Under the pieces are notes generated by a model. It saw only the letters and a list, made by a program, of their open reading frames with translations. It was not told where the DNA came from and ran no database searches. A program made the translations under genes and the position numbers. Below, piece after piece: positions 1-64,000 of a DNA stretch of 64,000 bases. This stretch comes from Paraphysomonas bandaiensis (lineage: Eukaryota; Protista; Chrysophyceae). Position 1 is the first letter of the stretch. Each line of letters begins with the position of its first letter. The stretch covers positions 29,560 to 93,559 of the forward strand of contig CBFFRP010000107.1 in assembly GCA_965644295.1 (NCBI GenBank), written 5' to 3'.

Positions 1-3000
1 TCCAATCTTCAGCTGCAGATCTTGATCCCTTGTGTGCGCAAGGTATTTCAGCACTCTATTCAACTTCTGCTGATCTCCGATTGTCGGACCCTTCACTCTT
101 GTTGTGAGGTACGCTATACTGAGCAGGATGTCTGGTCTAACTCTTATTGACAGATATAGCAATTTGGCCACCACTGAATGGAAATTGGCAGCCTCCTTCC
201 TCCCCAATTTCTGTCCTGCGCCCTCTGCGAACAGTGATGATGTCGCTGGAGATGCTGCTCTGCCAGTGACCGCTGCCTCCTCCAGCACTCCGTCTAGGTA
301 AGCCCTCATTGACACCACTGCCCTGTCATCTATCATGCTCACATGCATACCTAAATACGACATGTCTTTGTCATCACAGTATTTTACCTCACCATATTGT
401 TTCTTTAGTTGTTCCACCAACCACTCGGTGTCACGCTTGTCTTGTGATAGCACTAGCAGATCGTCCACGTGTAGTGTTATAGTGCACTGCTTGCCGTTGA
501 CAGTCCTATTGAGAACACACTGATCCACCGGGTTAGCCACGAAACCAATGCTTTCCAGGTAAGCTCTTATCGTGTCATACCAGAGCTTTGCGCTCTGCAC
601 GCATCCATATAACGCTTTGTCTAGGCGCACCAATATTTTGCCTCTTTCATCAACATACGGCTGGATTGTGGGGTCTAGTTTTCTGAGTATTGTGGCCAAC
701 ATCGGCTCCAATTCCATTATTACCTCTTCGCCTGACATCTCCGCATTGAGGTATGCACCACCTATATCAATTGTCGATACATGTCTCCCCTCTCTCGCTG
801 CTATTGCTAGGCATGCAAATACTGACTGTATGTCCACAGTGGGTGACGACGTGTCTGGGTACAGTTTCCGGTCCTGCTGTGCCCCGTTCGCAACCAGCCT
901 CGCCTTGATTTTCTCGAACCTTCCGAGTCCGTCGTATTTCGTCTTCAAAAACATCAGCGATCGAATTGTTCGTTTGAGTTGAGTCTTTGATAGGTCACTC
1001 CGGTGTACTGGAACTATCGCCTTTTTTTCATGCAGCAGCTGCTTCAGCTCCCGTAATATCGCCAGGTAGGCTTCTTTGCCGTGTTCCTTTAAACCTTTGG
1101 TTACGCTTGTGTGATAGGCTCGATACATTACGGGCTTTCTTCTTGTGCCTGCCGCTATCCTTGCTCCGGCTGATGGTGATGATAGTACTTCGCTTGTATT
1201 GTGTGTCATCCCTGTAGTTTCCACCCCTGTAATTTCCGGATCGTCGATGTCGTTGGGTGTTGCAGCGCCCGGTTCCTGTTCGCTCGGCCCATCAGCCCGG
1301 TCGCCATCATCGTCGACTGGTTCCGTGATTTTTGTTCTCTCTCTCTCTTCTGTGTGGCCGTGCCCTTCGTCTGTGTCAACTGCTGTCATCTGCCCCTCCT
1401 CGTGAGGCTCCTTCGGCTTATCGATCTCGTCATTCTCAGCTGGTGGCGTGGTATCCTCGATCTCTCGACTCTCATTCTCGCTGGTCGTGACAGGTGAGTG
1501 TGACTTGTTGTGCAATGACGATATTCTGTTCACGGCGTCTATTACTATTTGTGTGGTCACCATCTTCACCCAGTTGGTCCTACTCACATATTTATTTGTT
1601 TTAAGGTTTAAAAATATCCAACTCCCGTTTGCGTTGCCGGATGGGTACAGCGCGATACATGGTTCTGTTCTGGCCTGCTCCGCGTTATTGCTCTTGACCT
1701 TCGGGTCATAACATTCTACGTAGTCCCCAAAAGCCAGTGACAGTTCCTTTTTATAATTGGGTTTCCGACCAGTCAATGCCACTCGCGGTGCTACAGTTGT
1801 GCCATTGGTGGATGGCCTCCTCAAGTTCATGCGGCTGTTGGCGTATCTCACCAGGTCTCTGACGTTGGCATCTGGTAGGTTCCATGGTAGCCCTGAATGT
1901 ACACTGCGTATTGTCTCTTTGAGTCGCCTAATCTTCGCGTCGATCTTGTCCAGGTGATCTCCAGCCCCTGCCACGTCAATCTCCATCCCTGTGATTTTGC
2001 CTCTCAGGGCCTTGAATCCCGGCTGAGGGTCCAGGTAGGTAACTGTCGGTATGTACCCGTAGCTTCTTAACAGGTTTACTTGTTCCTGTAGGGCCAATCC
2101 CAACTGATCCGTTGTTTCGTTTTCGAGTGAAGTAACGATGGTTAGTCCCAATGGTTCCGCTAGTGTGAGCATGAACGATTGCTGTCTCACACTGAAGATG
2201 TCTGTGTACAGCATTTGCTCCTTCTGCTGTTCTGCCTTCAGTTCCGGATCCGCGTATTGCCGGCTGACTTTCTTATTCGTCTGCTTGCCTCTCACCGCTT
2301 CGAACGGTCTCCCATATATGTCAAAAGCTCTTCTGATATCACTCGGGGTAAGTCGCACCCCTGTAACGTTTCCGTCGCTCACTAGCTGCACAGCATCTCT
2401 CTCCGAGTCGAAACCCGAGTTTCGGATCAGGTCTCGTGCTTCTCGCGCTCTCGCGACTTCTACTTTCGAATATTGGGCTTCGCGCTCCGCTACAGTCGTT
2501 ACGTTGACTTTGGCCGTCGCCCAGTCGCGCATGTCGGCCACATACATCTTGTTCTTTCGATAGAAAGTCAAATCACTGTCAGGTAAGTGGACAGTGAAAG
2601 ACTCTCCCTGCCTATATGTCACTTCATATATGTCTTCTACGTCCGCCTGACATAGCACGCTTGCCCTTAGCTCATCTGCTGTCTTACAGGTGAAGAATTG
2701 GTCTAGCTCGCCTACATTCGGTAGTTCCAGTGCGTGTCCCGATAATCCCGCCACGGTGCATCCTTTGGACGCCGGTCTTACATTGTTCAGTAGTCTTGGG
2801 TGTACTACCGAGACATCCGCCTGGTTGTCGAGTAATACCTCGTACCATTGGAATGGCTCGCTTCCTGACGTGAAGGCGTTCAACATTGTTGTCGTGCAGT
2901 GCTTGTTTTCTGATTCTTGGCTACTGTCTGGGCATTCGTTCATTCTGTGGCCTGGCTCACCGCAGCCCCAACATATGAGCTGCCTTTTTTTCTGACCACG

Positions 3001-3912
3001 TTTGCTGTTGTGCGACTTCGTGTCGTTCCCTTGTTGCTGCTCTGGTGTATCATTGCTATCTGCTGATTTCTTGCCTTTGTCAGACTTCGATTTGCTCACG
3101 AATGCGGATCCGCCGCCTGCTCTCGTTGCTCTCTTCGGCGTTAGATATTTTGATGCTTTAGTATATATTTCATTCACATGCGTAGGTGCTGTTTGCGTTC
3201 CCATTGTTAGATCGTTGAGATAGCTAGTTTTGAACTCGCCATATCTCGTGTCGTCCAGCCCTTCGAAGAAATCCATCGCGATGTCCTCTTCATTCATTTC
3301 CGCGTTGTTCATGTCTTTGTAGGCTTCTAATAGATGATCAAACCTCTCCTTATAAGTAACTATACTCTCGTATGCTCCCTGTTTAGCGTCTTTGTACCTT
3401 TGCCTCGCTTCTGCTCGTACCACTGTACTTACGCTGGAGTTAGTGGATACTTTGTGGGTTTGTTTGATAGCCAGCCATAGTAGTAGAGGATCCTTAGTCC
3501 TGTTCATGAGCTCGTATTCATCTAATAGCTTGACTGCATCCATTGATTCGTGGCTCAGATGGTCTACCATGAATGAGTAGAATGCCGATCTATCGTTCCG
3601 CATCTTGTCTATTAATCTCCCTCTGGTCTTGGTCTTGTCCTTCATCAGGTCGAGGTTAACTCCATAGGGGTCGTCTTCCAAATCAAAATCCTCTGGGTTT
3701 ATCGCATCGGGCTCATAATATTTGTCCAGCTCTACTAGGCGTGCAAGATCACCGTACTTTTGCATGCCCACCACTACAAGCCTCTGTTTGAATGTGGCGA
3801 AGTTCGAGTTGGCACCGTATCTTAAAGTCGGTACATGTTCTGGTCTATCGGTGCTCGGTTTCTTGCCGAATCTTGCAAATCTTGTTGGCTTGTCGTTCGT
3901 TGTCTTCTTCAT
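1..3912 (-). CDS. Ty1/copia gag-pol polyprotein (gag, protease, integrase, RT); 3' part runs off the window
   Basis: ATG at 3912 (MKKTTNDKPTRF...) is in the same frame as the codons at position 1 (..NRVLKYLAHTRDQDLQLKIG). Manual translation shows zinc knuckle CWGCGEPGHRMNEC (~2932-2973), protease LLDNQAD (~2815-2838), an integrase core (YTDIF..YLDPQP..KIRRLKE), then RT motifs IKARLVANG, DIGGAYLNA, KALYGCVQSAKLWY and LHVDDLL. Integrase-before-RT order indicates copia. Absent from the ORF track because no stop codon falls inside the window. Confidence 0.93.
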   Translation of the reverse strand, partial: MKKTTNDKPTRFARFGKKPSTDRPEHVPTLRYGANSNFATFKQRLVVVGMQKYGDLARLVELDKYYEPDAINPEDFDLEDDPYGVNLDLMKDKTKTRGRLIDKMRNDRSAFYSFMVDHLSHESMDAVKLLDEYELMNRTKDPLLLWLAIKQTHKVSTNSSVSTVVRAEARQRYKDAKQGAYESIVTYKERFDHLLEAYKDMNNAEMNEEDIAMDFFEGLDDTRYGEFKTSYLNDLTMGTQTAPTHVNEIYTKASKYLTPKRATRAGGGSAFVSKSKSDKGKKSADSNDTPEQQQGNDTKSHNSKRGQKKRQLICWGCGEPGHRMNECPDSSQESENKHCTTTMLNAFTSGSEPFQWYEVLLDNQADVSVVHPRLLNNVRPASKGCTVAGLSGHALELPNVGELDQFFTCKTADELRASVLCQADVEDIYEVTYRQGESFTVHLPDSDLTFYRKNKMYVADMRDWATAKVNVTTVAEREAQYSKVEVARAREARDLIRNSGFDSERDAVQLVSDGNVTGVRLTPSDIRRAFDIYGRPFEAVRGKQTNKKVSRQYADPELKAEQQKEQMLYTDIFSVRQQSFMLTLAEPLGLTIVTSLENETTDQLGLALQEQVNLLRSYGYIPTVTYLDPQPGFKALRGKITGMEIDVAGAGDHLDKIDAKIRRLKETIRSVHSGLPWNLPDANVRDLVRYANSRMNLRRPSTNGTTVAPRVALTGRKPNYKKELSLAFGDYVECYDPKVKSNNAEQARTEPCIALYPSGNANGSWIFLNLKTNKYVSRTNWVKMVTTQIVIDAVNRISSLHNKSHSPVTTSENESREIEDTTPPAENDEIDKPKEPHEEGQMTAVDTDEGHGHTEERERTKITEPVDDDGDRADGPSEQEPGAATPNDIDDPEITGVETTGMTHNTSEVLSSPSAGARIAAGTRRKPVMYRAYHTSVTKGLKEHGKEAYLAILRELKQLLHEKKAIVPVHRSDLSKTQLKRTIRSLMFLKTKYDGLGRFEKIKARLVANGAQQDRKLYPDTSSPTVDIQSVFACLAIAAREGRHVSTIDIGGAYLNAEMSGEEVIMELEPMLATILRKLDPTIQPYVDERGKILVRLDKALYGCVQSAKLWYDTIRAYLESIGFVANPVDQCVLNRTVNGKQCTITLHVDDLLVLSQDKRDTEWLVEQLKKQYGEVKYCDDKDMSYLGMHVSMIDDRAVVSMRAYLDGVLEEAAVTGRAASPATSSLFAEGAGQKLGRKEAANFHSVVAKLLYLSIRVRPDILLSIAYLTTRVKGPTIGDQQKLNRVLKYLAHTRDQDLQLKIG

Positions 3913-3935
3913 AATTTCCTCTTAATGAGAAGTTC

Positions 3936-47937: not shown

Positions 47938-50900
47938 ATGTCAGAGACCAAATCATTATATCACAGAACATCATCTCTGATTGATTTCGATGAGGATGAA
48001 TACGATAAAGTGATTGAGAAGTATTCAGTGAAGAAGATCGAAAAGACGAGACCGATATATGAGTTTGAGCCTGATAGTCCGGTTGAAATAATAACAGGAG
48101 CTGTAACGAAGATTGGTCATCGCGACATATCGAGCTGGGCGAGTTTGAGTAATCCAAGACGGTTATTATTTTGTACTATCAATGTAATATGTACTGACAC
48201 GAATTGCAGGTCACAAGAGCACAAGGTTTCGATAAGTAATCACAAACCATGCCGCCATGCAGCCACCAAAGCAAAGGGTGCTAAATTATTTTCAAGTATA
48301 AAGAGCCGCCCGAAACCGACCCTAGAACGCATTCCCACTATTATAGACGAATCCAGCGAGAAAGTTGAGTTTTTTTCACCCGAGAAATGGTATACGAATC
48401 AAACTATGTCTGTGATATATGATATAACATAATATATCTGTCCAGTGAGAGTCTTAACCTTTCAAGGAGGCTGGCAGATCCTCCTGCTAAGACCTTTGTC
48501 GGAGTTTTTGATGTCCCTGACGAGGTATTTCAGAAGGAAAATGACCAGAGTGGAAGTGAAAGTGATGGCTCGACATCGTCATCGTGCCCGAGTCGTCGTC
48601 CAAGTGGCAGCAGTATGGTCAGCGACTTAACCTTGCCCAAGATATTTGAAACAGATCATGAAAAAGCTGCTTCTCGTGCTGCTGAGGCTCTAATGGGCTA
48701 CTCAAAGAAAAACCGATCATACGCTCGGCAGTCGACAACTCTCAAGAATTTCAGAGTTAGAGATCGCCGAATATCTTATCTCAAACTACAGAAGCGTAAA
48801 AATGTGAGTGCGGCGGCCTCACAGTCGAGGTACCACATGACTCGACAGGGGTGTCGGCATGGCCTACCCTCACTATCTCCAGAAAAGACTCCCAAATACT
48901 TTGGTGAGCAGTCTCGGGTGTATCTGTACGACACCTACCGAGATTTAGACCACATACGGAAACAACTGCGGAGTGCTCAGGACGATATAGAGGAATTTGT
49001 GTCGGTCCCTCAGCCTGACTTGGACCAAGAGATAGACGAAGTATCTCTTAGTGCTGGAAACGAATGGGCAAATGAATACTATGAGGAAAAAAGCAATAGT
49101 ACCGGACATGTGACATTGCAGCCCTTAGGGCTGGTTTGCGATTCCCGCTCCCTGACATCAGTATCCTCTCAACACTCCAAGCGTACTTTCGACCCCTCCT
49201 CTCCACGAGCAAAATATCTTGCTGCTTGTCTGAAACAGAACATCCCCCCTAGAGCTGCTATGATCCTCCGTGATAAGGAGACTACCTCGCTATGGTTGGA
49301 TCACCAAGGCATGGGAGACCAGCTCGGGATTGTGTTCGCTAAGGGTCTAGCTGATCTGCCGAATGTGACATCGGTGAATCTTACAGATAACAATCTTACC
49401 GATAAGAGTCTTACAGTTCTTATCAACACAATAGCTACGAAGCCATCTATCACAGAACTGAATTTGTCCAACAATGTGGTAGGGTCTGATGCTGCGGATG
49501 CACTGGCAACTTATCTTAGAGACCCTTCCTGTACGATCAAGAAGCTTGTCCTTCGGGCCGCTAATGTGGACGACTCAGAATGTCACAAGTTTGTTGACGC
49601 TCTGGGATATAACCGTGTACTGGAGGTTATCTTTCCATTTTAATGTACTCTTTTTTTAACGTTATCATTACATGGTAGGAGCTGGATATGTCAGAGAACT
49701 TGCTGGGTAAGGACGAAAATCTGAATGCTGTCAAGCCGGATATTATAACTGCTGGAGAAAGTTTAGCCGTTTTGTTACATGATTGTCGGTGTCCCCTACA
49801 GTCCCTCAAGATTGCCTGGAATATGATCAGGATGGAGGGAGCCATGGAATTTTGTCGTAGTCTCCAGTACCAAAGGCATCTGAAGCATCTGGACATATCA
49901 TTTAATTCTCTCGGGAGGGAGAGTGGAGTTGTCCTTGGCAACGCGCTTTTAGACAATGAGGTATTTTTTTATCGGTATTTTTGTGTTCATACTTCTAATA
50001 AATGTTTGATTAGATTCTCGAAGAGTTATACATAGCGAACAACAATATCGATGGGGCTGCCTGTTTTGCCATTTGTGTTGGTATTCGTGAGGGACGATCA
50101 ATGAAATATTTGAACATTGATGGAAACCCGGTAAGTACACTACTTCATGTGATGAATTTCGAAAATTTTCTGAAGTATATAACATTAATTCCAGATTGGC
50201 GAAGCTGGAGGCCGTATATTGATGACCTTGCCGGTATCGTGTGGGGCTAGAGTTACATTCAGCGCGAAGGGGTGTGATTTCAACATGCACCAAGAGGCGT
50301 GCTGGTTTGATAAAACATGTAAAAAACCTCGTTCGTTTCTAATATTAGTGTGGTCTAATTTCTTTTCTGTAGCACCTACTGGTGATTTTGAACTTGACAT
50401 GGAGGATGGGTACGAACTGGCAGTGTTCTACGAGCTGCTAGACATCGTTGCTAAGCACCCATCGTACACATTCGCAAAGGTAGAATACGGTTATGACAGA
50501 GAAACTAAACACTGGGATGAAATCCACCTATGCCCTCTCGCAGAAAAGAACACTAAGCTCAGCGCGTCTGAAGCCAACCACTTAGCTAAACTGAAAAGGT
50601 CTGTACAACTAGCTCAGGATTTAGATATGTGTAAGAAATATTTTGAGGTACGGACAATTCTATTTACAACTTGGGTGTAATATTGTTTGTCAGCTATGCG
50701 ATGTTGATAATTCAGGAGAGCTCTGTGAGTTTGAGTTTTTCGATGTCGTGGACAAGATTGGATTCGCACTAACAGAAAGGCAAAAGGCATCAGTAATGTC
50801 TATTTATGATACGGATCACTCTGGGGCGATTCAAATAGAAGAGTTCATTGACTTTATATCTGAGGTTGGCTTTTCTTCTGGTCATATATGGTCTGGCTTA

Positions 50901-53066
50901 TGTTGTTGTTGTTGCATGTTTCAGGTAGGGAGAGATTCCGCACTTCGGGTTCGTGATATTGAGACTATTGCACGATGTGCTGAAGCGAAGGACCCCAAGA
51001 AGAGATATATTCCACCTCGCCGTGGGATATTTCGAGTATCGGTGGTGGACAGTTACGTCTTCGGTGACGATTGCAGAGCCCTCACTTCAGAACAGGTAGT
51101 ATACGGAACCTTGTTATCTCAACCATTTGCTGAGCTGATATGTTTTCAGTGTGAGAATCTTGTTAACATGGCCAAGAACACCTCCGATGCTGCTCGCCTG
51201 CTTCAGTACGCCGCTCAAAGTGACCAGTTACGCATGGATGAAGCGCAAGAGATTTTCAATCACGTGGTGAGTGAGAGTGGAGATCCCGCTGGTACGATGG
51301 CTGTCATCCTTCCGCATATGGCCTCTGCAGCCGAATCGAAGAATATGACAAGTGTATGTGCTCCTGATGATGAGGTTACAAGGAGACGTATCAGAGCACA
51401 GCTGGGTAATGCATACAAAGCGATAATGGGACTCGCCGATGGATTTTATGCTCTCGATTTAAGCAAAGAATCTGATAGACTCTGTATGACGAAGCTTTTG
51501 GAAATCAGCACCACTTGTGCTGCCAGGAGGAGGCAAATGGGACTCGGAGATGTTAGCCAGGACGGAAATTGGTCCAGCTTTAGAAATGAGTACTTTTCAG
51601 GCCGTGAAGTCCGCCTAACATCATCTTTTCTAACACCTATGCCAGAGTTTGGAAAAATTGAGTTCGACTTTGTCGGATCGGAGCGCCCCTCTCCCAATGT
51701 GGTATGTATAACTGACAGAAAATTGGTTCAAACTCTCGTACAACTCAAGTTACTCACTGTCAAGCACGTACACTGGGCTTACGATGAGTTGAGTGATATG
51801 CGGTCAGCATGCAAAAAGGCGTTGGTATGTCCCGGGGCATCACCCTACTGGCAGGCTAGCATAGGACGAGTTCGTGAGGCCCAGGACTACAAGTACAAAA
51901 TATATAGTGAACTCCACCTTCGGTCCGAACAGTTGGAAAAGGCCTCTAAACGAGAGCAGTTTTATTCTCAGATGGCAGCCAGCAAACCGCGTAAAACCAG
52001 TGTTCCGTCTGTTCTCGCCGATGGTGTCAACTTCCTGCTGGATGAGTTCGAGGTAGAGGACGTGGTGCCTGTGACTATGGACAATGCCGCTAGGACACCG
52101 CTACATAAATCTGAAGGTTACTCTGAATGGGACGACGATAAGGAATGTGTAGAAGGTGAACGCACAGAAAATGGTGTTGAGGCAGAAGCGGCTACATCAT
52201 CTCGTACTCGAGAGAAGACCCCGTCTTCGTCTCGACGGAAGGCAAAAAGGTCTGCAAGCAAAGAGGTAATGTATGAGAACGGTCAAGCAGCCTGTGCGAA
52301 TTGTGCTCGCATTGTGGATGACATGGAGCAAGCCTTTGCGACGAAGTGGATCTATGCCCGTCATTTGGCCCTGATCGCGAAGTGTTTCCGTACAGGCACT
52401 CTGAAGAAGACTGATTTTGGGACTTACCGTGTGGAATTAATTGTGTCCCTTTTCTGTAGAATCAAGGATAGCCACAATTTCGATCTCGTTCTGGCTAGTG
52501 TCACAGCAGAGGAGCATGGAATGCTGATGGCACGACTTGGAATACTAAATATATTTGACCCACTGAGACCCGAAGGCGGGTTTTGTCTAGACCTCAGCAC
52601 GTGGGAGGAGAGACAGGCAAGTTTGATGATACTATATTCATTTTGTTTGATATCTAATTGCTAGGTTGTTAAAATGCTTGTACATTTTGCTGCTGTTGAG
52701 CCGGGTGTGAATTGGTGGACACAGGCTTTTCAATTTGATAGGAGTATGAAGCGTATACCTGGATGGGAGCTACCAGTAACGTGGTACTCTGAAGAAGGAC
52801 TGCCAAAGAAAGGGCTTCTGTCTCTTATGTACTATGCTGGAAGTGGGCTAAAAATGCACGGCTGTTCAGCAGTGAAACGGGACAGACAGGCACTTTTGTC
52901 CCTTGTGCTTCACCGAGCATCACTAGTTCGTTTGGACGACACTGGGCTGAGTCCTTTTACTGATGGCATGGAGCACTGTACTCTGGAGGCTGCGAATCAG
53001 CTGTTGCTACAATGTGGAGCTGATATAAAATGGAATTATGACCCTGTTTCTGACCGTCACGAATAG
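47938..53066 (+). CDS. Large LRR (RI-like) + EF-hand protein; multi-exon, 5' structure uncertain
   Basis: LRRs VTSVNLTDNNL, ITELNLSNNVVG and LKHLDISFNSLG; EF-hands DVDNSGELCEFEF and DTDHSGAIQIEEF; consecutive ORFs joined by short introns. Confidence 0.8.
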
Positions 53067-54562
53067 TAGTGCGTTGGAACCCACGCTATGAGTAGATGAG
53101 TAGTGCTTTTATGTTGTTTGATGTGTTTAGTATTAGTCAATGTGTTCAATGTATATAATTATATGGATACTAAAGAGAATGATTATATAGAGCTTAATCT
53201 GTACTCTCTACAGCTATTTAGTGCTAGCATGGACGATGTACGAGAACCTCTGTGGTTAAGTTTATTAATGAACAGCCATATAAGACAAAAAACAGAAAAC
53301 TATACCTGTCATGGATATATACGGTAGTGAAGTACATCTGAAATCACTACCGTCTAATGGTGCAATGAATTCATATACACTATTGAATACTGTTGTACGA
53401 TGTGCTCTATTCTAGATTTGAACAGTGCACTGAAGTTGACTTTGCTATACACTTAAACCTTAATATTGCTGTGTTTAACACAATGCACTTTCAAGTAAGA
53501 AATCATAATTATTAATTATTAATCTAAACACTTCACAACATATTCATGTAACATCTGGTGAACATCTGTTTATCATATTTTTGCTTGTGGCCGACAGCAC
53601 CTCGACAACCAGCACCATCTCCACCACCGACTTACACTCTCATCTACATCTCGCCCCATCCACTCATCACATATCACATAACCCATGGCACAGGCCCACC
53701 AGACACATTGCCTAAAATCTCCCTCTGCCCTACGGTGGCAAATACCGTTCAACACAAAGTTTCACCTTATTAACCAGCTTTAAGCTCAATGTCCCTATTA
53801 AGGGTATGGATGAGTCATGTCAGTGTGCCTAGGGCCTCTTCTCCCTCTCTTCGGCCACATTTTGCTGATCACCTCGTCTCCGACAAATCTCTTGTTTTAC
53901 CACGTTGTACACGTTCCAAGCCTCACTGCCTGGCTTTGCGACTTCCACCCAACCTAACGGCTTCGGCTAAACCACGTGCCTGCACTAATGCAGCGCTTAC
54001 CGCATTCATATGCCATCACATCAGTAGACATCATAGTCTCACCTATCGAATTCTACGGTTACAACCACTCAAAACGTGGCTCGTGCGAGCAGGTCCACGC
54101 AAAAGATCCTCTGGTGCTCTCCATATGGTCACAGAATACTCTCGAACCCTCACAACTGAGCTACAGGGCTGCCTCCTGATGTCCACACAAAACAACCCAA
54201 CATGGTTTCTCTGTGGTCTATGCATCCAGCAGGTTACCCCCTCATTCTGTTCACCTATCACTCCCTCAGCCCATTCCTCTTATTGGACAGACACTGTATT
54301 CCGCATACGGTATATTCGGCTACTGTACTACAGTGCCCTACAGGATGTATACCACACAAAAACGGTGCTAGCATGCGGTACACCACGTAGCCCCGGACCC
54401 CATCAATACCCTACCAACACACACCCACTCAATCTTGCTGGTTATGAGTATATCACCTATGCAAGGCCCCAAAGTTCACGCTTAAGTCTCTTGCGTAACA
54501 ACACTCGGTTCACATACAGATATACACCAACACTCTTTAGAAGCAACTTCGACACAATTTCA

Positions 54563-56328
54563 ATGAAACGTGAAACAAATTCCAACACTTCCAGAACCTT
54601 CACCCCGAAGTTTGTTCTTCCCCCCTCATATCAACCAACCAACATTGATGCGCAGATCAATAATGCTATCAGAGAACAGAAGAAAGCCAAAGCTGACACT
54701 CCCCAGCTACAGCTCCCATCGGTACGCACCTTTCTGGGATGGGAAAATGATCTACCTGTGGGAGAGTACAAAACACTCGTCCTTACAAACATAAAAGCTG
54801 CTGATGATGCCACCTTCCTGGGGATAACACACTACCTTATCCATGAGTTGGGGTTTCCCATTCAACCCCCTACCCCCCAAGACATCGCTACCTTCAGGGC
54901 AGCCAAGGATGCACGAACGTGTTCAGACTTACCCGCTCCCACAGCGAGTAGGGTAGTCCGAGCGTTCGACCTAGGCAGACCTGGGTACGAAGTCCGACAG
55001 GGCATGGGAGCGAATGTTACCGCTGACTCATGTATGTACTCCTCCCCTCTATGCTTTGACCTCCATGTAGAAACGGGCACATCAGTCGATGACAAAGGCC
55101 TCCTTCGGACCGAACGCCGACATGTCCAGATATCACTTTTCCGAACGCCACGAGAACTCTTCGTGGGTCGCACCAAGGATGAGCCCTCGCTGATACCAGT
55201 GGCGGCTATATATGGGCTACATGCAGACTCAGCGCACACCAGACCTGCACATGCCTTTAGGTTACGAAACACGCTGGATATGCTTCTCCGAACGGGAGGT
55301 TTCCCCACGCCACCTCTATACGAAGTATTCTGGACTCTAACACACTATAGAGGCAAGACTCGAGCCACTGATAAAACATATAGGTTCTATCAGATTCTAT
55401 TACTCCACGATCCCATTCACGATCAGGATCTAAGAGCTAAATTCTATAAAGCACTCTTCAATAATGAAATAGGAGGACATGTCGAAATCAACCTCGGCTC
55501 ACTCTGTTGTAGAATGGTCAGCACTGAAACACCCACGCAAAAGCAGTCCAACTGGACACCGTCTCAAGAACTCTTCCGCATCGCTGTCTGCTCTGAAACA
55601 CTCCTATCTCCCATCCAAGTCTGGCAAGCCTGTGAGGCCATAGGTATCCCATCCACGGACATAGAGGACATCATTTGGACCGCCCGCAACCCACTCACAA
55701 GCGGGCGCAAAGAAAAAGAACGCTTAGTTGAACAAACCTACATTTACCTTGACGACAGGAATACCAAGATCAAACTCTGTTGGGAAATCTCACGCACAGG
55801 TATCGTGCCTTTACTGCGCAAAGCTCTGGGTGACGAAACTCTAAGGCTCCTCTATCACACCATAGCAGTCCCCCTGGCCTCCCTACTCAGCGGTTTCTAT
55901 ACGGCCTCCATAAGGCCCCAGACACAGCAACAAACGCCCCTCCCATAATACCGCCTCCAACGTCCCTTCAACCCTTCGGTCCAACTGTTGCTCCACAAAT
56001 GCAGACCGATACACCGCGATCGTACACTCCCAAACGACAGCGACAGATGGACACATCCCCATCAACAGAGCCAGCACCAGCTCCCACCTGCCCAGAGCTC
56101 TGCGAAATAGCTCTACACATCGCTTCAGATCTTGTACCTCTGTCAAAAATCCATGCCATCCTCGTGCAAATGGAAAACGCGGTTGCAGCTCTCTATGAGA
56201 TCGATGCTGGGGCGACTCTCACGGTACTTGATTACTATAAAAACAAGGTAGATCACAGTATCCCAGAAAGGTCCTCAGAAGAACACTCTCGGGTGGACTC
56301 GGACATCTTCGGCTCCGACTCCAACTGA
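54563..56328 (+). CDS. Putative ORF1 of the non-LTR element (one probable frameshift near 55945)
   Basis: Long ORF 53789..55948 (likely ATG at 54563, MKRETNS) continuing in 55999..56328, positioned upstream of pol. No domain recognised. Confidence 0.55.
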
Positions 56329-56376
56329 CTCCTACTGGACTGGGACACAACGAACATCAAACGTACACTCATAGAA

Positions 56377-59300
56377 GTGTCCGCAGCTGCTCACACGTGG
56401 TTATCCCCCAGTCCACACTTACATATCCATAGTTGGCCATCACCTCCTGACACAACGACCTTCGCCTGTAGCACCCACATGCGTCCACCACGTAAACCGC
56501 CAGACAAACAGTCGAGATCCACCAGTGTACATCCCACGAAAAGGCACCAAGGACCGCACTTTTCCTGTGATAATAGTGGTGATGGACCACGAAAACGGCC
56601 GGCCTCGACACAACGTAAGCGAAACAACCTCCGGCGGCTCAGTCGCAAACGAACTCTGCAACAATTTCGTGAAGGAACAATCCAGTCCCTCCCTCCACAC
56701 ATACAACGTCAACAGACACGAAACAAGCTCCGCATCCGTGCCCACAACAAGCAAGCATGGCGAGAGCATTTACAACACCTGGCACAACAGTGTGTAGACA
56801 CACACAACATCGTGACCACTCCTATACCTGACACAGCACCCACAGCTGTTACAGCACCCCCCGTCCAGAAGACTCCACACATACTATTTGCCTCCCTCCG
56901 CCCACAGTGGAGGACGAACAAGAGAGAACAATCACTGACACAAGTGTACTGCCTCAACTATTTGTGCCGCACCCTCTGCCAGCTGCCTTCACGGACCCCG
57001 GACTGCAGAATTGGTCCTTCTACTCGCCCAGCGGTCTGTTAGCCATTGCCATACACGAAGAGGTGGTTCACAGTGTCATGTCCATGCTACAATCGAGGCA
57101 CGCTTTAGAACGCATAGAACAGCACCTCAGATGTTCGCTTGAGGAGGGGAAAATGCTGGTTGCACGTCACTACACACACACAGAATACAACAACACACCA
57201 ATGGAGGGCTTCTGCGGACTAGCTGCTATTGCCGCAATATACCACAAACAACCGGAGGAGGACCACTACCCGTATTTAAATCCCGATGATCCAGCCTCGA
57301 AAGCAAAACTGCTCCAAGTCATTCAGACAAGCAGGACGGTACTTAGTACCTACACGCTCGCTGAAGCCAAGATGCTTAACTTTGCATGCATCCGGAAGAA
57401 GCTCCGACAGCAGCTAACAACGTACAACAAAGCACTACGCCGCAAACGACCAACTGCTGTCGGAATACCCCCAGAGCAATGGGGCTACACAGACATCATA
57501 GCCCTCCTGGCAGAAACCCTGAGTATACGAATTCGTATCTGGCAAGATTCACCAGTGGACCTTGGCCACAACTGGGCGTACTGGTCTACCCACCATTCCT
57601 CCTTCCTTCCACAAACTCAATTCCTTCCATCTTATGATGTGTTTTGCTCCAACGACCACTTCTTCCTGGACACCAAATACCCGGTGGAGTTGGAACTACA
57701 CGCGCTACTCGAGAGAATTCCTGACCTCGTCATCATGCGTCTCCAAAATGTGTTGCAATATCATTCCAAGGGAATGCAAGGAGTCCATCGTGCTAGGTCC
57801 ATCAACCATCCCTCCCACGCCCTTCAGGGGAAGGAATTCTCTTCCGATAACAGCGGTGACGGACCCAGCAAATCCACCCACACATTACCCTTACCCACTA
57901 AGGATGCCACCACACCGTATGCAACTCTATTTGACTATTTCCCAGTCAAACGGAGGCCACCTACCACCAACCCTACTCAACTGAACACCATGGGAACTCC
58001 AGCATTAGCCCCAGACGGCCCATCCTCACACTCCACTACCACTCCTGACATCAGGCCGGATGCACTGCCCAAGGACATTGCCACACACCCCCGACACTAC
58101 ACAGAGGGCTGGGGTCACACGCCCTTTCACTCCGATCTGCTGAACAACTGGGTTAGATACGATGAAACCCAAACCATTGCTGCCTCCCCACAGGGAAACC
58201 TTTTAAAAGAAATATATGCACACATGCTATCCCCTGCCTGTACAGACATATGGGAAGGATTCATAGCCAAGGCTTCCAGGACGGACAACTATGATCTCAT
58301 GATATCATTCACGCTACCAGAGCACAAATTGGATACCACGCACAGCGCCCTACTAGTTGCCCAGCATCTCGCGAATGGCAACAAACCCTGGGCAGACTCC
58401 ACTCATGTTGTATCTAGGCATGTGCGGACCCTTTGCCTGACAAAGGGTATTCCCTCAACAGCCACTGTTAGTCTCCGTAAGACACTCATGCAATATGAAT
58501 CCTCGACTCCACACACAGGACTACATCTAGACACGGAGGATTTCCAACTGCTACTCGATCTTCTCTCCATACCATACAGACTATGGGACGCTGTTCAACC
58601 GCACCTGGCGCCTGGTTGGGCACAGCTGTCACCATTCTCCAGACAGGCACTAACAGTGCACGCTTCTACCAACACTGTGGTAACCCATGACATCATACGC
58701 AGCCAGCATGGGTTTCACATACTCAATGCAACAAATATCCCCACCTGCATCATGCACGCTCTAACACGGACTCAGGAGCGGCTATCCTGTTTTCTACAAC
58801 ACCAGACCTCCAGACAGAGCACCACCATCCTCTGGACTTCTGAGCCGTCAACTGTACCACCTATGCTACATGAGCACAGAGAGCAACAGGAACAGAGGGA
58901 AGTAATTGCAGTCTCCTTGTCACCGAGAGCTCGACGTCAACTACGACAGATGAACCCCACGGACCGTCGACAACTCAGGCTCCATATGTGCGACATGAGC
59001 AGAGTCTACCGCCTCACCCTCAGACCCTCAGCCCTTCGCACACAACAACATATCCCTAGTGATGGGTACTGCGCATACAGCACACTCTATCATCTGCTAT
59101 ATTCTTGCTTCAAGCAGGCGACACACTCGCTCCTGTCTGAAATTAGACCTCAAACAACGCAAGGACCGTCACACGCTAGCATCTTTCATAAATACATTAG
59201 GCACCCAAGCGTTCGACATAATGCAACGGGAGTGCATGGCCCATCACACACTTCAGCCACTACGACATAAGTTAGATCACGCACAGGCCGCACTTTTAAT

Positions 59301-62300
59301 ACCTACCAAAACAACATACACTACGGAAGACGACATAACTCACTGGCTCTCAGTGCGAGAGGTCCACCTTTTAGCCTCTACTATCAACCCCTGCACGACG
59401 TGGGCGCAAAATGGTAATTACCTCAGCATTGTTGGCATCCCTACTGACAAAGTAGCTTATAACATCGCATGGAAGGTGGACGAACTTAGGGACGCTATTC
59501 GTGATAACTACTACCATGTCATACTACAAGATGCTCACTACTTCCTCTTAGACCCTGCCGGTCTTTCTACTGCCCTAGACAACGCCCTACTATCTCTTGA
59601 AAACACCTTGGCCACCAGTATACTCTCAACGGCTGACCCCATCGCTCCACCTACACTTCCCGCGGACTCAATCACGAACAACAATAGGACATCAAAGATG
59701 ACCAGCACCAGAACAACCTCGTCAAGCAGCACCAAGTTAGCACGAACAAATCGACAGATTCTGCAGGCTTCAAACCCTGGAGCACTACCATCGCACAAGA
59801 AGATGCAGTTGAAACACGCCCAAACTGCGTTGACAAGTCGATGCCAGCCAACCCGGAAAGCCAAAAAGGTCGTAAATTACGATGAAAGTGACCAACCAAC
59901 GAACCTTCACAACTCACACCCAACCACGACCACACGAACGATCAGACCAACTCCAGCACTAGATACCACCGGATGGGACAGGGACTGGTCAAGAAAGTTC
60001 TACATTGCGTACGCCGATAACACTGCCAAAGGACTATCCCTTTATGCGAAGAACACATTCCCAGCAGACGTCATCATTGCTGAGTACAAAGGCAAACGCT
60101 ATCCACTAACAAAGATGAGTCAGTCTACAAGGCGTTCTGATTACATAGTTCAAGACAGTACTGGTACCTTCGCAATAGATGGCTTTGACCAAGTCCGACA
60201 ATGTGTAACATGCGAAGCTGGGTATATTAATGACCCCCTAGCCACAAGCATGGCTAATGTCAAGTTTGTCACGAAAAATAAACGCCTCTGCGTCCGTACA
60301 ATACGTTCCATTGCTAAGGATGAAGAACTTCTCATCAACTACGGACATCACGGTATTGGTGTGATCAGCGCTGGCCACTTGAGATATTAATCCAAGCCAG
60401 GGCTGCGTACGACAGCGACATATGGCGGTGCCAATATAGCAGTATGGGACAGACTCCTTGCAGACAAGAGAGTGGAACTCCTACAGAGACCTCCAGCAGC
60501 ATCCCCAAGGATCCCTCGGGAGCAGCCATGGGACTCCGAACTCTCCACATGGAACACAAATGGCAATCCGGCATCACACACGGGCAAAGCCCAAGCTATC
60601 ATCCACGACACTTTAAGCGGCAAAAATTGGACGTGCTCCTATTACAGGATGTCCGTCTAACAGAAACTCAGGCCAACTTCTTCACGCGTATCATCGAAGA
60701 TGCACTCCAGGGAACAAGAACATGCCTCTTCCTCAGCAAGCAGCCAAAACTGACTTCAAGAGACCCACTAATGGGGGGTACGGTAGTCATAATCAGCGAA
60801 TACTGGAAGCGCCGTCTCGCCTTCACAAAGGCTGACTTTACGGGACTTGGTTTAGTGAGCCGACTAGAGCCCAAAACGTCGGTGGCGCACACCCTAGAAC
60901 ACTAATAAGCACGTCTATCTACCCCCGAAGCCAGCCCTCGCCAGGCACTTGCACATTATGGAGCAAATTGACCAAGCTAGGGAGAGCGTCCCGTGGTATC
61001 TGTACTGCTGACCCCTACAAGGCTCTCTATGCAACATCCTTACGAAATGGGGTCACCAAAGCCAGAGCCAAGGACCATACTGTCATTGTCGCCGGCGACT
61101 TCAGTGGCTCCATGGAGACAAATCCTAAAGGCAGAGACATACGACCACTTGCCGACAAGCTCCACCCGGCTGCACCACTCCACTGAGCTACCTACTCCAG
61201 GAAAACATAACATCGCTACCCTTCCACAGATTAGACAAAGGAATATCGCGGATCGATCATATTCTACACACGCCGTTACCTCCGAACATGTCTGTTACGG
61301 ACACTGGCCGCCTTGACTCCCCCTCATTACTCGCAGCGAGCCTTCGATCATCGACCGGTCTGGGTCGGTTTCACCGTACCAGTCAATCTTGATTCCCTCG
61401 TCCACCGAGCCGCACCTCCGACCCCCCCCCCGTCTCCAATGTAAACCCGAAGGACTCCAAGGAAGTACAGGCATACACACCACGACTCCTCCAACTTCAT
61501 GCACAACTACCACATTTAGACAATCGGATCGACTGCCATACTCCCTCCTATGAGGTGGCAGCCAACATGAACTAGCGGCCATCCATCACATAACCCTCCA
61601 GGCTTCGCTTGAGGCGAAGCGTCCTGCATGTACACATATGACACGCCGCATGAACGTTGTCAGCGCACACGCTCAAAGTTCAAGAATGGCTTTTTCCCCG
61701 GAAATGAGAGTAATACAGGAAGGAATGCTCATGGTTTTGCGGATTATCCAAAAGATGTTCAATTCTGCTGGATACAAACGGCATGGGGATGGCGCGGCCC
61801 CCCGGCAACCACCCCCACCCACGAAATCATCACTGCATGGTTCGCCCGATGGGACTCCTATCTCAGGAGTTCTCAGGGTCACATCAAAGGCATATCGGAC
61901 ATCAACTCTGTGCAGCCACCGCAACGCGGACCCACGAGTAATCCTGGGTTGGAACGCAAAGCAAGCCACCAAGAAAACCTTCTCCGAATTGCCTTGCGAC
62001 TGAGAGGACTTCTTCATGTGGAAGAGCCAGGACAGAAATGCGGACCAGACTCACGGCTCGCACCAAGCAGATGGAGGCACTGCTACAGCAGAAAAGATCA
62101 AGCAATTCTCTACACCGAAAATTGGTCTCAAGGTCAAAACACCACTCCGACTTACCACGAGGTGAAACAACGGACGGACACATCCTCACAACGCCGCAAG
62201 ACATTCCATGAAGGCATTAATGCGCACTTCCGTGAACATCATGCCAAACCTCCCGGACTTGACCCTGTGGCACAACAGCTCCAGGATGACCCTACATGGT

Positions 62301-64000
62301 GGAAATCACTTCTTGATCCGGGCTCAGCGACATGCCAGGAACCACTCCACCCCCGCTCGAAAATTCCTCTTCCCCTGCAACTGGGGTTACGACGGGCCCT
62401 TTGTACCAAGACCACTCCGGCCATGGCAGCCACACTCAAATCTACTCTTGCAAAAGACATCACCCAGGATGAATTCTACTGCACACTTCACTCTCTCTCC
62501 TTCAACCGCGCGCCTGACCCTCAATGGTCTCCTCCAACATGGTCAAATCCTGGCCACCGGTAGTTCAGCGAGAGGCTTACATCCTCACCAGATCTCTCTG
62601 GAAACATAAACATGTGCCCATTTGGTGGAGAGACAGGGTAATGTCTCCCATTCTCAAGAAACCAGGAGAATCCTCCCTCACTAATCTCCGACCGATTGGT
62701 CTGCTTGAAGTCAGTAGGAAAATATTAACAAGGATAATCACTCATAGAATTCTTACCGTATGGGAGGAACAGAAAGTTTTGCATCCGTCCCAGCATGGTT
62801 ATCGCTGGAGGAACGGGACGGACACAGCGATACTAAGGGTACTCGCGGCTGCAGAAGAAGCAAGACGAAAAGGCGACCAGCATATATGTACACTCTGGGA
62901 CTTCAAGAAGGCCTTCGACTCAATTGCGCCTAACCTCATGCGTCTCGCGTGGGCACGACTGGGCGTTCCGGACGATGTAGTTGACTGGTTTGGCAACTTA
63001 GATGCCGGCGGTCTAACATTTCCCTGGACACCATTCATGGCAAACAACATAGAGCCACGTTCTCTCCTTGACCTCCTGTCCGCAGACGGCCACTTCATTG
63101 CACTATTCAGTCTGGGTTTCGAAGCCGAAAGGGGTATCACCCAAGGGGGCACAGAATCCACATGCGCCTGGGTGGCACTCTACGACATCCTTCTCACGTG
63201 GCTGGACATTGAACTGTCAACAACGAGTCCAACGTTACCAACTATTCAACTCACGACTCCGACTACAGGCGAAATAAAGATCTCCTTCGCGGATGATCTT
63301 AACACAATAGCTAAATCCATACACGCTGCCCAACTCATTGCCCAACAAATATCTGCGTTCTGCGTACTTTCGGGAATGGAACTCTCAAAGTAGTTTGCAC
63401 AGTGTTTCCGATCCTACAGGATTCCAACAAGTCCTCCGACCCCATTGGCTACATCATTCTCTACGACTGGTCATGGCGCCCACACCCAGTCCCTATCCAA
63501 ACATCACTAGAGTCGATACATTACCTCGGAGCAGACCTTCCTCTCACAATCACAGACAAGGCCTCCCATGACTGGTGTCTAAAATACCTGAAAGTCGTGA
63601 CCACACACCTAGGGATCAAACAGGCCTCAGCCGGCTGTAAAGTCATGGTTATCGAGACCCAAATCATACCGACTTTGCTCTATAGAGCCACCAAAGCTTC
63701 ATGGCCGCTACACTGGTACAGAGAAATTGACGCTGCTTGCGCAACCCTCTACAGAAAGGCCCTCAGTCTAGGCCCTGGATACCCCACGGAACTGATCTAC
63801 CTCTCACTCAAGCACAACGGATTAGGTATGAAACGTTTCTCAGACTCGGCGCAGGAGCAAAAATGGGGATCTCTACAGCGCGCAATAACCCTCGGGGGAG
63901 AAGCAGGTCAAGCAGCACATTTTCTACTCACTCAGACAACAGAGCCACAGCCCCAATACCACCACCATGTTCTCAGCCTCAGGGAATGGGGAACGGAATT
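56377..64000 (+). pseudogene. Non-LTR ORF2 (OTU-like x3, SET, APE endonuclease, reverse transcriptase), broken by several frameshifts
   Basis: APE: LSTWNTNG (60541), LDVLLLQDVRL, GG, IVAGDF, SRIDHIL, DHRPVWVG (~61350). RT: LRPIGLLEVSRKIL, QHGYR, DFKKAFDSI, RGITQG, FADDL, HYLG, then YLSLKHNGLG. SET and OTU motifs are detailed in the findings. Confidence 0.88.

Follow-up and report, generated by a model that had tools for sequence, protein, structure and literature searches.

Why does a retrotransposon of the chrysophyte Paraphysomonas bandaiensis carry the same short peptide twice within one predicted polyprotein? The question arises from the second open reading frame (ORF2) of a LINE lying in a 64,000-nt stretch of genomic DNA, here called the window. 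Both copies end in Gly-Pro, as do the 2A (StopGo) peptides, and a preliminary description of the locus had proposed either a ribosome-skipping peptide or a cleavage site for a protease of the element itself.

The repeated peptide and its host element

The two 20-residue stretches (56530-56589 and 57807-57866) align without gaps in otherwise unrelated surroundings, as first described: 13 of the 20 residues and 37 of the 60 nucleotides are identical, and the 30-nt blocks flanking both stretches agree at only 6–9 positions, which is the chance level. Eight of the 13 shared residues are encoded by different codons. Within 53601-64000 this pair is the top 20-aa repeat, with all other pairs of 20-aa windows showing fewer than 10 identities, and local shuffling of the codons, repeated 40 times, never gave a score above 11, against the 13 of the real pair. 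Because the codons differ, the flanks are at chance and the shuffles score lower, the repeat is taken to be real and kept at the peptide level; on the same codon, nucleotide and flank evidence a recent DNA duplication was rejected as its source, in agreement with the preliminary description.

The original length of 20 aa has to be revised, since the unit conserved family-wide comprises only the last 13–14 residues, (F)G[KP][EQ][FY]SSDx[ATE]GDGP, and the HPxxxxQ lead-in is common to only the two window copies. When a profile from which the two window sequences had been left out was run against all six frames of the window, it returned exactly these two sites (E 1.2e-9 and 1.1e-4; the next at E 1.9). 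Among the contigs of public runs compared, no difference is listed in the codons of copy 1, and the sole listed variant within copy 2 (position 57842) is synonymous.

The host is a high-copy retrotransposon, as contig depth in public marine runs is 30–46 in the flank and reaches thousands inside the element from 53470. Its 5' edge lies at about 53470-53570, where loose contig ends are found (53472-53598), its 3' end lies past the window, and its composition is C/A-skewed from 54 kb on. With an APE-like region ahead of a non-LTR reverse transcriptase (RT), it has the make-up of an APE-type non-LTR retrotransposon, the APE being present here as fragments only; RT relatives carry Pfam Exo_endo_phos where the APE-like region of the window sits. 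A word-based search with the 812-aa ORF against longer proteins gave no match.

In this copy the two motifs occupy different plus-strand frames (0 and 2). Other copies of the element, compared through contigs of public runs, are distinguished from this one by indels at 55869, 56443, 56856 and 59098, the 1-nt difference at 56856 being present in contigs of two of four runs. Frame arithmetic with these indels joins the ORF pieces and so places both motifs in one ORF2 frame. The TGA that closes the ORF1-like frame is unchanged in the run-X1 contig. The predicted leader begins MRPPRKPPD (56479-56505), and the KPPD word also occurs in the RT relative P0125.

The preliminary placement of copy 1 near the ORF2 start is borne out, as its last Gly is residue 36 of the predicted ORF2, and that of copy 2 behind a first OTU domain is as tentative as the domain itself. 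For this OTU-like domain 1, ESM Atlas gave matches at 0.90 with OTU on 19–20% of their members, Pfam gave no match and a home-made OTU profile was not significant; an AlphaFold model of the OTU-like region, made without an alignment, was uninformative, with a pLDDT of 35.

In two runs the contigs become about ten times deeper at about 57555. Loose contig ends are found ahead of 57571 and also past 57874 and past 58442, where the same tail is attached at both places. Short derivatives of the element, or alternative 5' modules, may therefore exist in which motif 2 is retained (57571-57874 and 57571-58442). Their contigs are also found in a poly(A) RNA run, which does not itself imply transcription. 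Elsewhere in the window, an uninterrupted 1307-aa Copia-type ORF (1-3921, minus strand) runs out of the window and has no motif copy, and a host gene with an EF-hand match (50625-53066, plus strand) lies immediately upstream of the insertion.

Table 1. Features of the retrotransposon and its two motif copies (window coordinates)
Feature	Position	Strand	Basis and remarks
High-copy non-LTR retrotransposon (APE/RT type, SET and OTU-like domains)	53470..64000	+	Depth; Pfam RT and SET
ORF1-like frame	53774..56328	+	Broken at about 55869 here; TGA 56326-56328; no Pfam match
Predicted ORF2 leader, 36 aa	56479..56586	+	First in-frame ATG (inferred start) to Gly of motif 1
Motif copy 1 (GPHFSCDNSGDGP)	56551..56589	+	Variant: H and C replace the usual E and S
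OTU-like protease domain 1, tentative	57190..57665	+	Cys loop 57207, WG 57480, His 57651, by eye
Motif copy 2 (GKEFSSDNSGDGP)	57828..57866	+	Fits family consensus
OTU-like domain 2, tentative	59061..59545	+	Landmarks by eye; split here by 1-nt difference at 59098
SET domain	60031..60345	+	Pfam PF00856, E 9e-9
APE-like endonuclease	60400..61400	+	Fragments by eye; broken by several indels
Non-LTR reverse transcriptase	62518..63393	+	Pfam RVT_1, E 4.5e-15

Occurrence in transposons and RNA viruses

Scans of JGI metagenomes and viral contigs recovered the motif in 77 independent contexts, or 76 after removal of one chance match. In 52 of 64 parts of the JGI metagenomes a degenerate pattern gave 121 loci with 125 translated matches, of which 96 have Ser-Ser at the core, against a chance share of 14%; these 96 fall into 58 independent contexts. 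The 29 matches lacking Ser-Ser, 27 of them with a Cys-Asp core, were set aside, and the one scanned with Pfam (L005) is a bacterial-type group 1 glycosyltransferase. Most of the invariant columns of the motif are set by the search patterns themselves. At positions left free, the 58 contexts are biased towards Phe before the first Gly (28/58), Lys or Pro (45/58) and Ala, Thr or Glu (47/58), and conservation is absent past the Pro and farther upstream of the motif. Every synonymous codon is found at the fixed positions, and a signal at the RNA level was rejected on that ground. Of 49 loci that measure at least 1500 nt, 48 have their longest open frame in the frame of the motif (median 864 versus 43 aa), and two copies occur in each of 19 ORFs (about 13 distinct).

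Pfam annotation of 37 JGI motif ORFs identified DIRS-like elements (RT plus tyrosine recombinase), a LINE-type RT ORF, a Helitron, a Copia and a Gypsy; single MORN and LRR ORFs are the sole cellular-looking carriers seen, and about half of the ORFs have no Pfam match. Across 28 Pfam-annotated ORFs (those with no Pfam match being left out, and one copy counted twice in overlapping contigs), none of 34 motif copies overlaps a Pfam stretch, against 6.2 expected. In two ORFs (L006 and L017) the motif lies 14–15 aa past the end of RNase H, with ends judged by eye, and in L006 it stands directly ahead of the recombinase. A Gypsy-like polyprotein (L071:793-7203, L080) has an integrase, then an APE-type endonuclease domain and then the motif.

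Among the best 150 RT relatives the motif is present in two, both at 31% RT identity, and the closest are without it. In one of the two (P0147) the motif ends 9 aa ahead of the APE domain, and the 45-aa region around it, used as a query, matched only itself. Since two of the 20 relatives that extend at least 700 aa upstream of the RT have the motif and the closest have none, its distribution in the LINE clade is patchy. The accessory domains among RT relatives are Ulp1, OTU, SET and RNase H. P0043, P0047 and their relatives are intact non-LTR polyproteins of 3500–3900 aa with RNase H, RT, SET, OTU and Ulp1 in varying order, and represent a LINE family with chromatin- and ubiquitin-directed enzymes. 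Among other non-LTR elements, Dualen carries a protease.

In viral contigs the exact pattern FSxDNSGDGP, which is too narrow, had no match. The scan of IMG/VR gave 17 matches, all of the Ser-Ser type, and a looser scan added 18 further contigs and one chance match, giving 35 viral contigs in total; 31 of these have an RNA-dependent RNA polymerase (RdRP) or S-domain capsid match and are thus RNA viruses. Matches on five larger contigs (L157, L211, L212, L213 and L215) were taken to be due to chance, and a phage scan gave no match. When single positions were left free in the viral scans, all 25 stretches retained the Asp and 25 of 26 the last Gly. The Pro was retained in 14 of 16 stretches, which correspond to 9 of about 11 independent contexts, Ala or His replacing it in the other 2. 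The two closely spaced copies of one contig (L175) end in GDGA and GDGH, natural variants that have no Pro. An environmental RNA virus (L135:1912-8160) has an S-domain capsid, a Z-alpha domain 14 aa past the motif and an OTU domain, and a picorna-like polyprotein (L137) has two motif copies upstream of its helicase.

Two viral observations bear on separation. In a pair of contigs that overlap by 879 nt at 100% (L163 and L154), RdRP, motif, 99 aa, motif and capsid follow one another in one frame, and the available part of the genome has no Pfam protease. In three capsids, the motif Pro lies 101, 106 and 111 aa upstream of an S-domain landmark; in 20 motif-less capsid relatives (of 23, after exclusion of the truncated L221, the short L230 and L231, whose landmark was misplaced), the first Met lies 88–137 aa upstream (median 112). 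The Pro therefore occupies the position of the start codon of the relatives.

Prokaryotes show no sign of using the motif. In 596 Gb of prokaryote genomes from GTDB, 12 pattern matches were found against 4–10 expected by chance. Only two of the 12 are of the Ser-Ser type; each lies on a MAG contig of 3 kb, and one of these contigs has a SET domain; a chance level of this kind means non-use and not inactivity. Among protein resources, ESM Atlas searched with the motif alone gave no match, the best PDB match was partial and at chance level (E 0.57), and 42 motif stretches searched against Pfam hit no family.

A probable StopGo-like separator and its alternatives

The canonical StopGo core is (D/G/C/N)(V/I)ExNPGP, with N16 and P17 almost invariant in viral sequences (accessible part of PMC12846837). 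PGP is described as necessary in the accessible part of PMC12338488, where class B is defined by an upstream Trp and EG(I/V)Ex(N/H)PGP, and in class X no more than a single position of the canonical core may be substituted, every cluster in the accessible text keeping NPGP (bioRxiv 10.64898/2026.09.24.754024). As these sources describe them, class B and X peptides make plain that a 2A core can diverge and that retroelements are among its carriers; the present motif has neither the Trp of class B nor (N/H)PGP. It does not match the class A core, nor that of class B, and at six of the eight core positions tested for class X it differs or is free. It therefore falls outside classes A, B and X, with only the Gly-Pro (two of eight core positions) in common, as had been recognised for the canonical consensus; its own core is SSDx[ATE]GDGP with G[KP][EQ][FY] upstream, and its activity is putative. 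GDGP does not appear in the main text of the 2A papers searched, those on classes B and X included (supplements aside). Literature searches, whose scope was main texts outside most subscription journals, found no description of the motif or of such a class, nor of the related ending GEGP/PGEGP. The motif is real, apparently undescribed and far more widely spread than the first reading of the sequence could show.

The motif and canonical 2A are both short portable peptides that end in Gly-Pro, leave codon choice free, recur within ORFs and lie in frame at polyprotein domain borders, including those of RNA viruses; the motif has no conservation downstream of the Pro, and both are limited to eukaryotes, StopGo being inactive in E. 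coli (accessible part of PMC12846837). According to the text available from PMC3708506, canonical 2A occurs in the APE-type LINEs L1Tc/Ingi, CR1, L2 and Crack, sometimes directly before the APE. The motif likewise lies in the N-terminal region of ORF2, before the APE in P0147, and is patchy among relatives; the 2A-bearing LINEs of that text have NPGP and mostly lack ORF1, whereas the present one combines an ORF1-like frame with OTU-like and SET domains and carries the motif twice. Long non-LTR elements with accessory domains include Dualen/RandI and the protease-carrying NeSL and Utopia-1_TSP (accessible part of PMC4640811), the comparison being one of length and domain content.

Taken together, the motif is a portable peptide in fixed register, common to unrelated eukaryotic transposons and RNA viruses, and at their polyprotein borders it would probably act as a StopGo-like separator. 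We infer that it separates proteins, for which the single-frame RdRP-capsid virus and the Pro/Met geometry of the capsids are the best arguments; by analogy, we infer that separation would be ribosomal and at G|P, as the motif resembles 2A in its length, its terminal Gly-Pro, its conservation on one side only, the range of its hosts and where it is placed. The nascent motif in the ribosome exit tunnel would lead to release at the last Gly, with translation resuming from the Pro. In the present LINE, ORF2 would then yield the 36-aa leader, a basic/OTU-like piece of roughly 426 aa, and a piece with OTU-like, SET, APE and RT domains. The StopGo-like reading of the preliminary description gains strong comparative support from conservation as a peptide, the Gly-Pro end, the border position, the occurrence in five types of transposon as well as in RNA viruses, and the chance level in prokaryotes, but the motif fits no described 2A class; most likely it works like one nonetheless. 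With a little better than an even chance, it represents a second, independently evolved family of ribosomal peptide-bond-skipping peptides that lacks NPGP and extends across RNA viruses and all main types of microbial-eukaryote transposon.

Several observations speak against this reading. Beyond the slight overlap with the 2A core, the patchiness among RT relatives and the columns fixed by the search patterns, Pro is not absolute, in-frame Mets are also present downstream of the Pro in the three capsids, and two copies are oddly placed, one of them a single codon ahead of a stop (L086) and the other in front of the first Met of its frame (L167). NPGP was never found at the same junction: neither it nor the motif occurs in the 23 related capsids, and NPGP is absent from the best 150 RT relatives.

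Alternatively, the motif may be the site of a host protease, cut post-translationally, either behind the final Gly or at D|G-P (compare the Q|G-P of 3C), and borrowed by viruses and transposons. Such a site would account just as well for the position at borders, the restriction to eukaryotes, the repeats and the geometry of the capsids, and would tolerate Ala or His in place of Pro. We nevertheless regard it as unlikely: a 13-residue site in fixed register with no downstream conservation would be unusually long and one-sided, most proteases cut poorly before Pro, and the only cellular-looking carriers seen are the single MORN and LRR ORFs.

Less probable still is an arrest or pause of the ribosome that is not followed by release, and that would tether the growing protein to the RNA that encodes it (cis preference) or adjust how much is made downstream. 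G|P is likewise the end of the bacterial arrest peptide SecM; the motif agrees with such a peptide in length, in its freedom of codon use and in the terminal Gly-Pro, and copies beside a stop (L086) or after a short leader (36 aa here) require no separation. However, a virus with RdRP and capsid in one frame, only motifs between them and no Pfam protease does need separation, and so does a Pro that matches capsid starts.

There is a very slim prospect that the peptide, acidic and with its Ser-Ser-Asp, is a short linear motif for binding or phosphorylation, through which disordered linkers would recruit a host factor. Repeats and a linker location are typical of such motifs, and FGxxF/Y loosely resembles the G3BP-binding FGDF, but the near-invariant GDG end, the single-frame RdRP-capsid virus and the fact that unrelated proteins have it at borders and where ORFs formerly began would all be left unexplained.

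It is equally improbable that the motif is cut by the OTU-like protease of the element itself, as proposed in the preliminary description, or that it holds a chemically self-cleaving Asp-Gly bond, since the two OTU-like domains here and the one motif-bearing virus with OTU (L135) are set against OTU-bearing RT relatives that lack the motif (P0043 and P0047), a motif far from element-specific, and carriers that mostly have no Pfam protease (among scanned motif-bearing ORFs only the OTU of L135 and the 3C of L137, both viral, and none in DIRS-like, LINE or Helitron ORFs, with the reservation that divergent proteases may escape Pfam).

Implications for protist viruses and transposons

StopGo surveys define or search around (N/H)PGP, as the accessible parts of the sources indicate; if the motif does represent a second skipping family, searches anchored on NPGP have missed a whole class, and StopGo would be a convergent solution that different sequences have reached independently. 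With an unrelated core of equal function, the exit-tunnel model derived from the cryo-EM structure of F2A could be put to the test on a new sequence. A 14-aa linker unlike P2A or T2A could also serve in vectors that carry several genes, perhaps above all in algae and other protists.

If the motif is instead cut by a host protease, a conserved processing pathway of protist viruses and transposons is still undescribed. If it is a StopGo-like peptide, many RNA viruses from the environment and many transposons of protists would have to be re-annotated, in that apparent fusions would be separate products.
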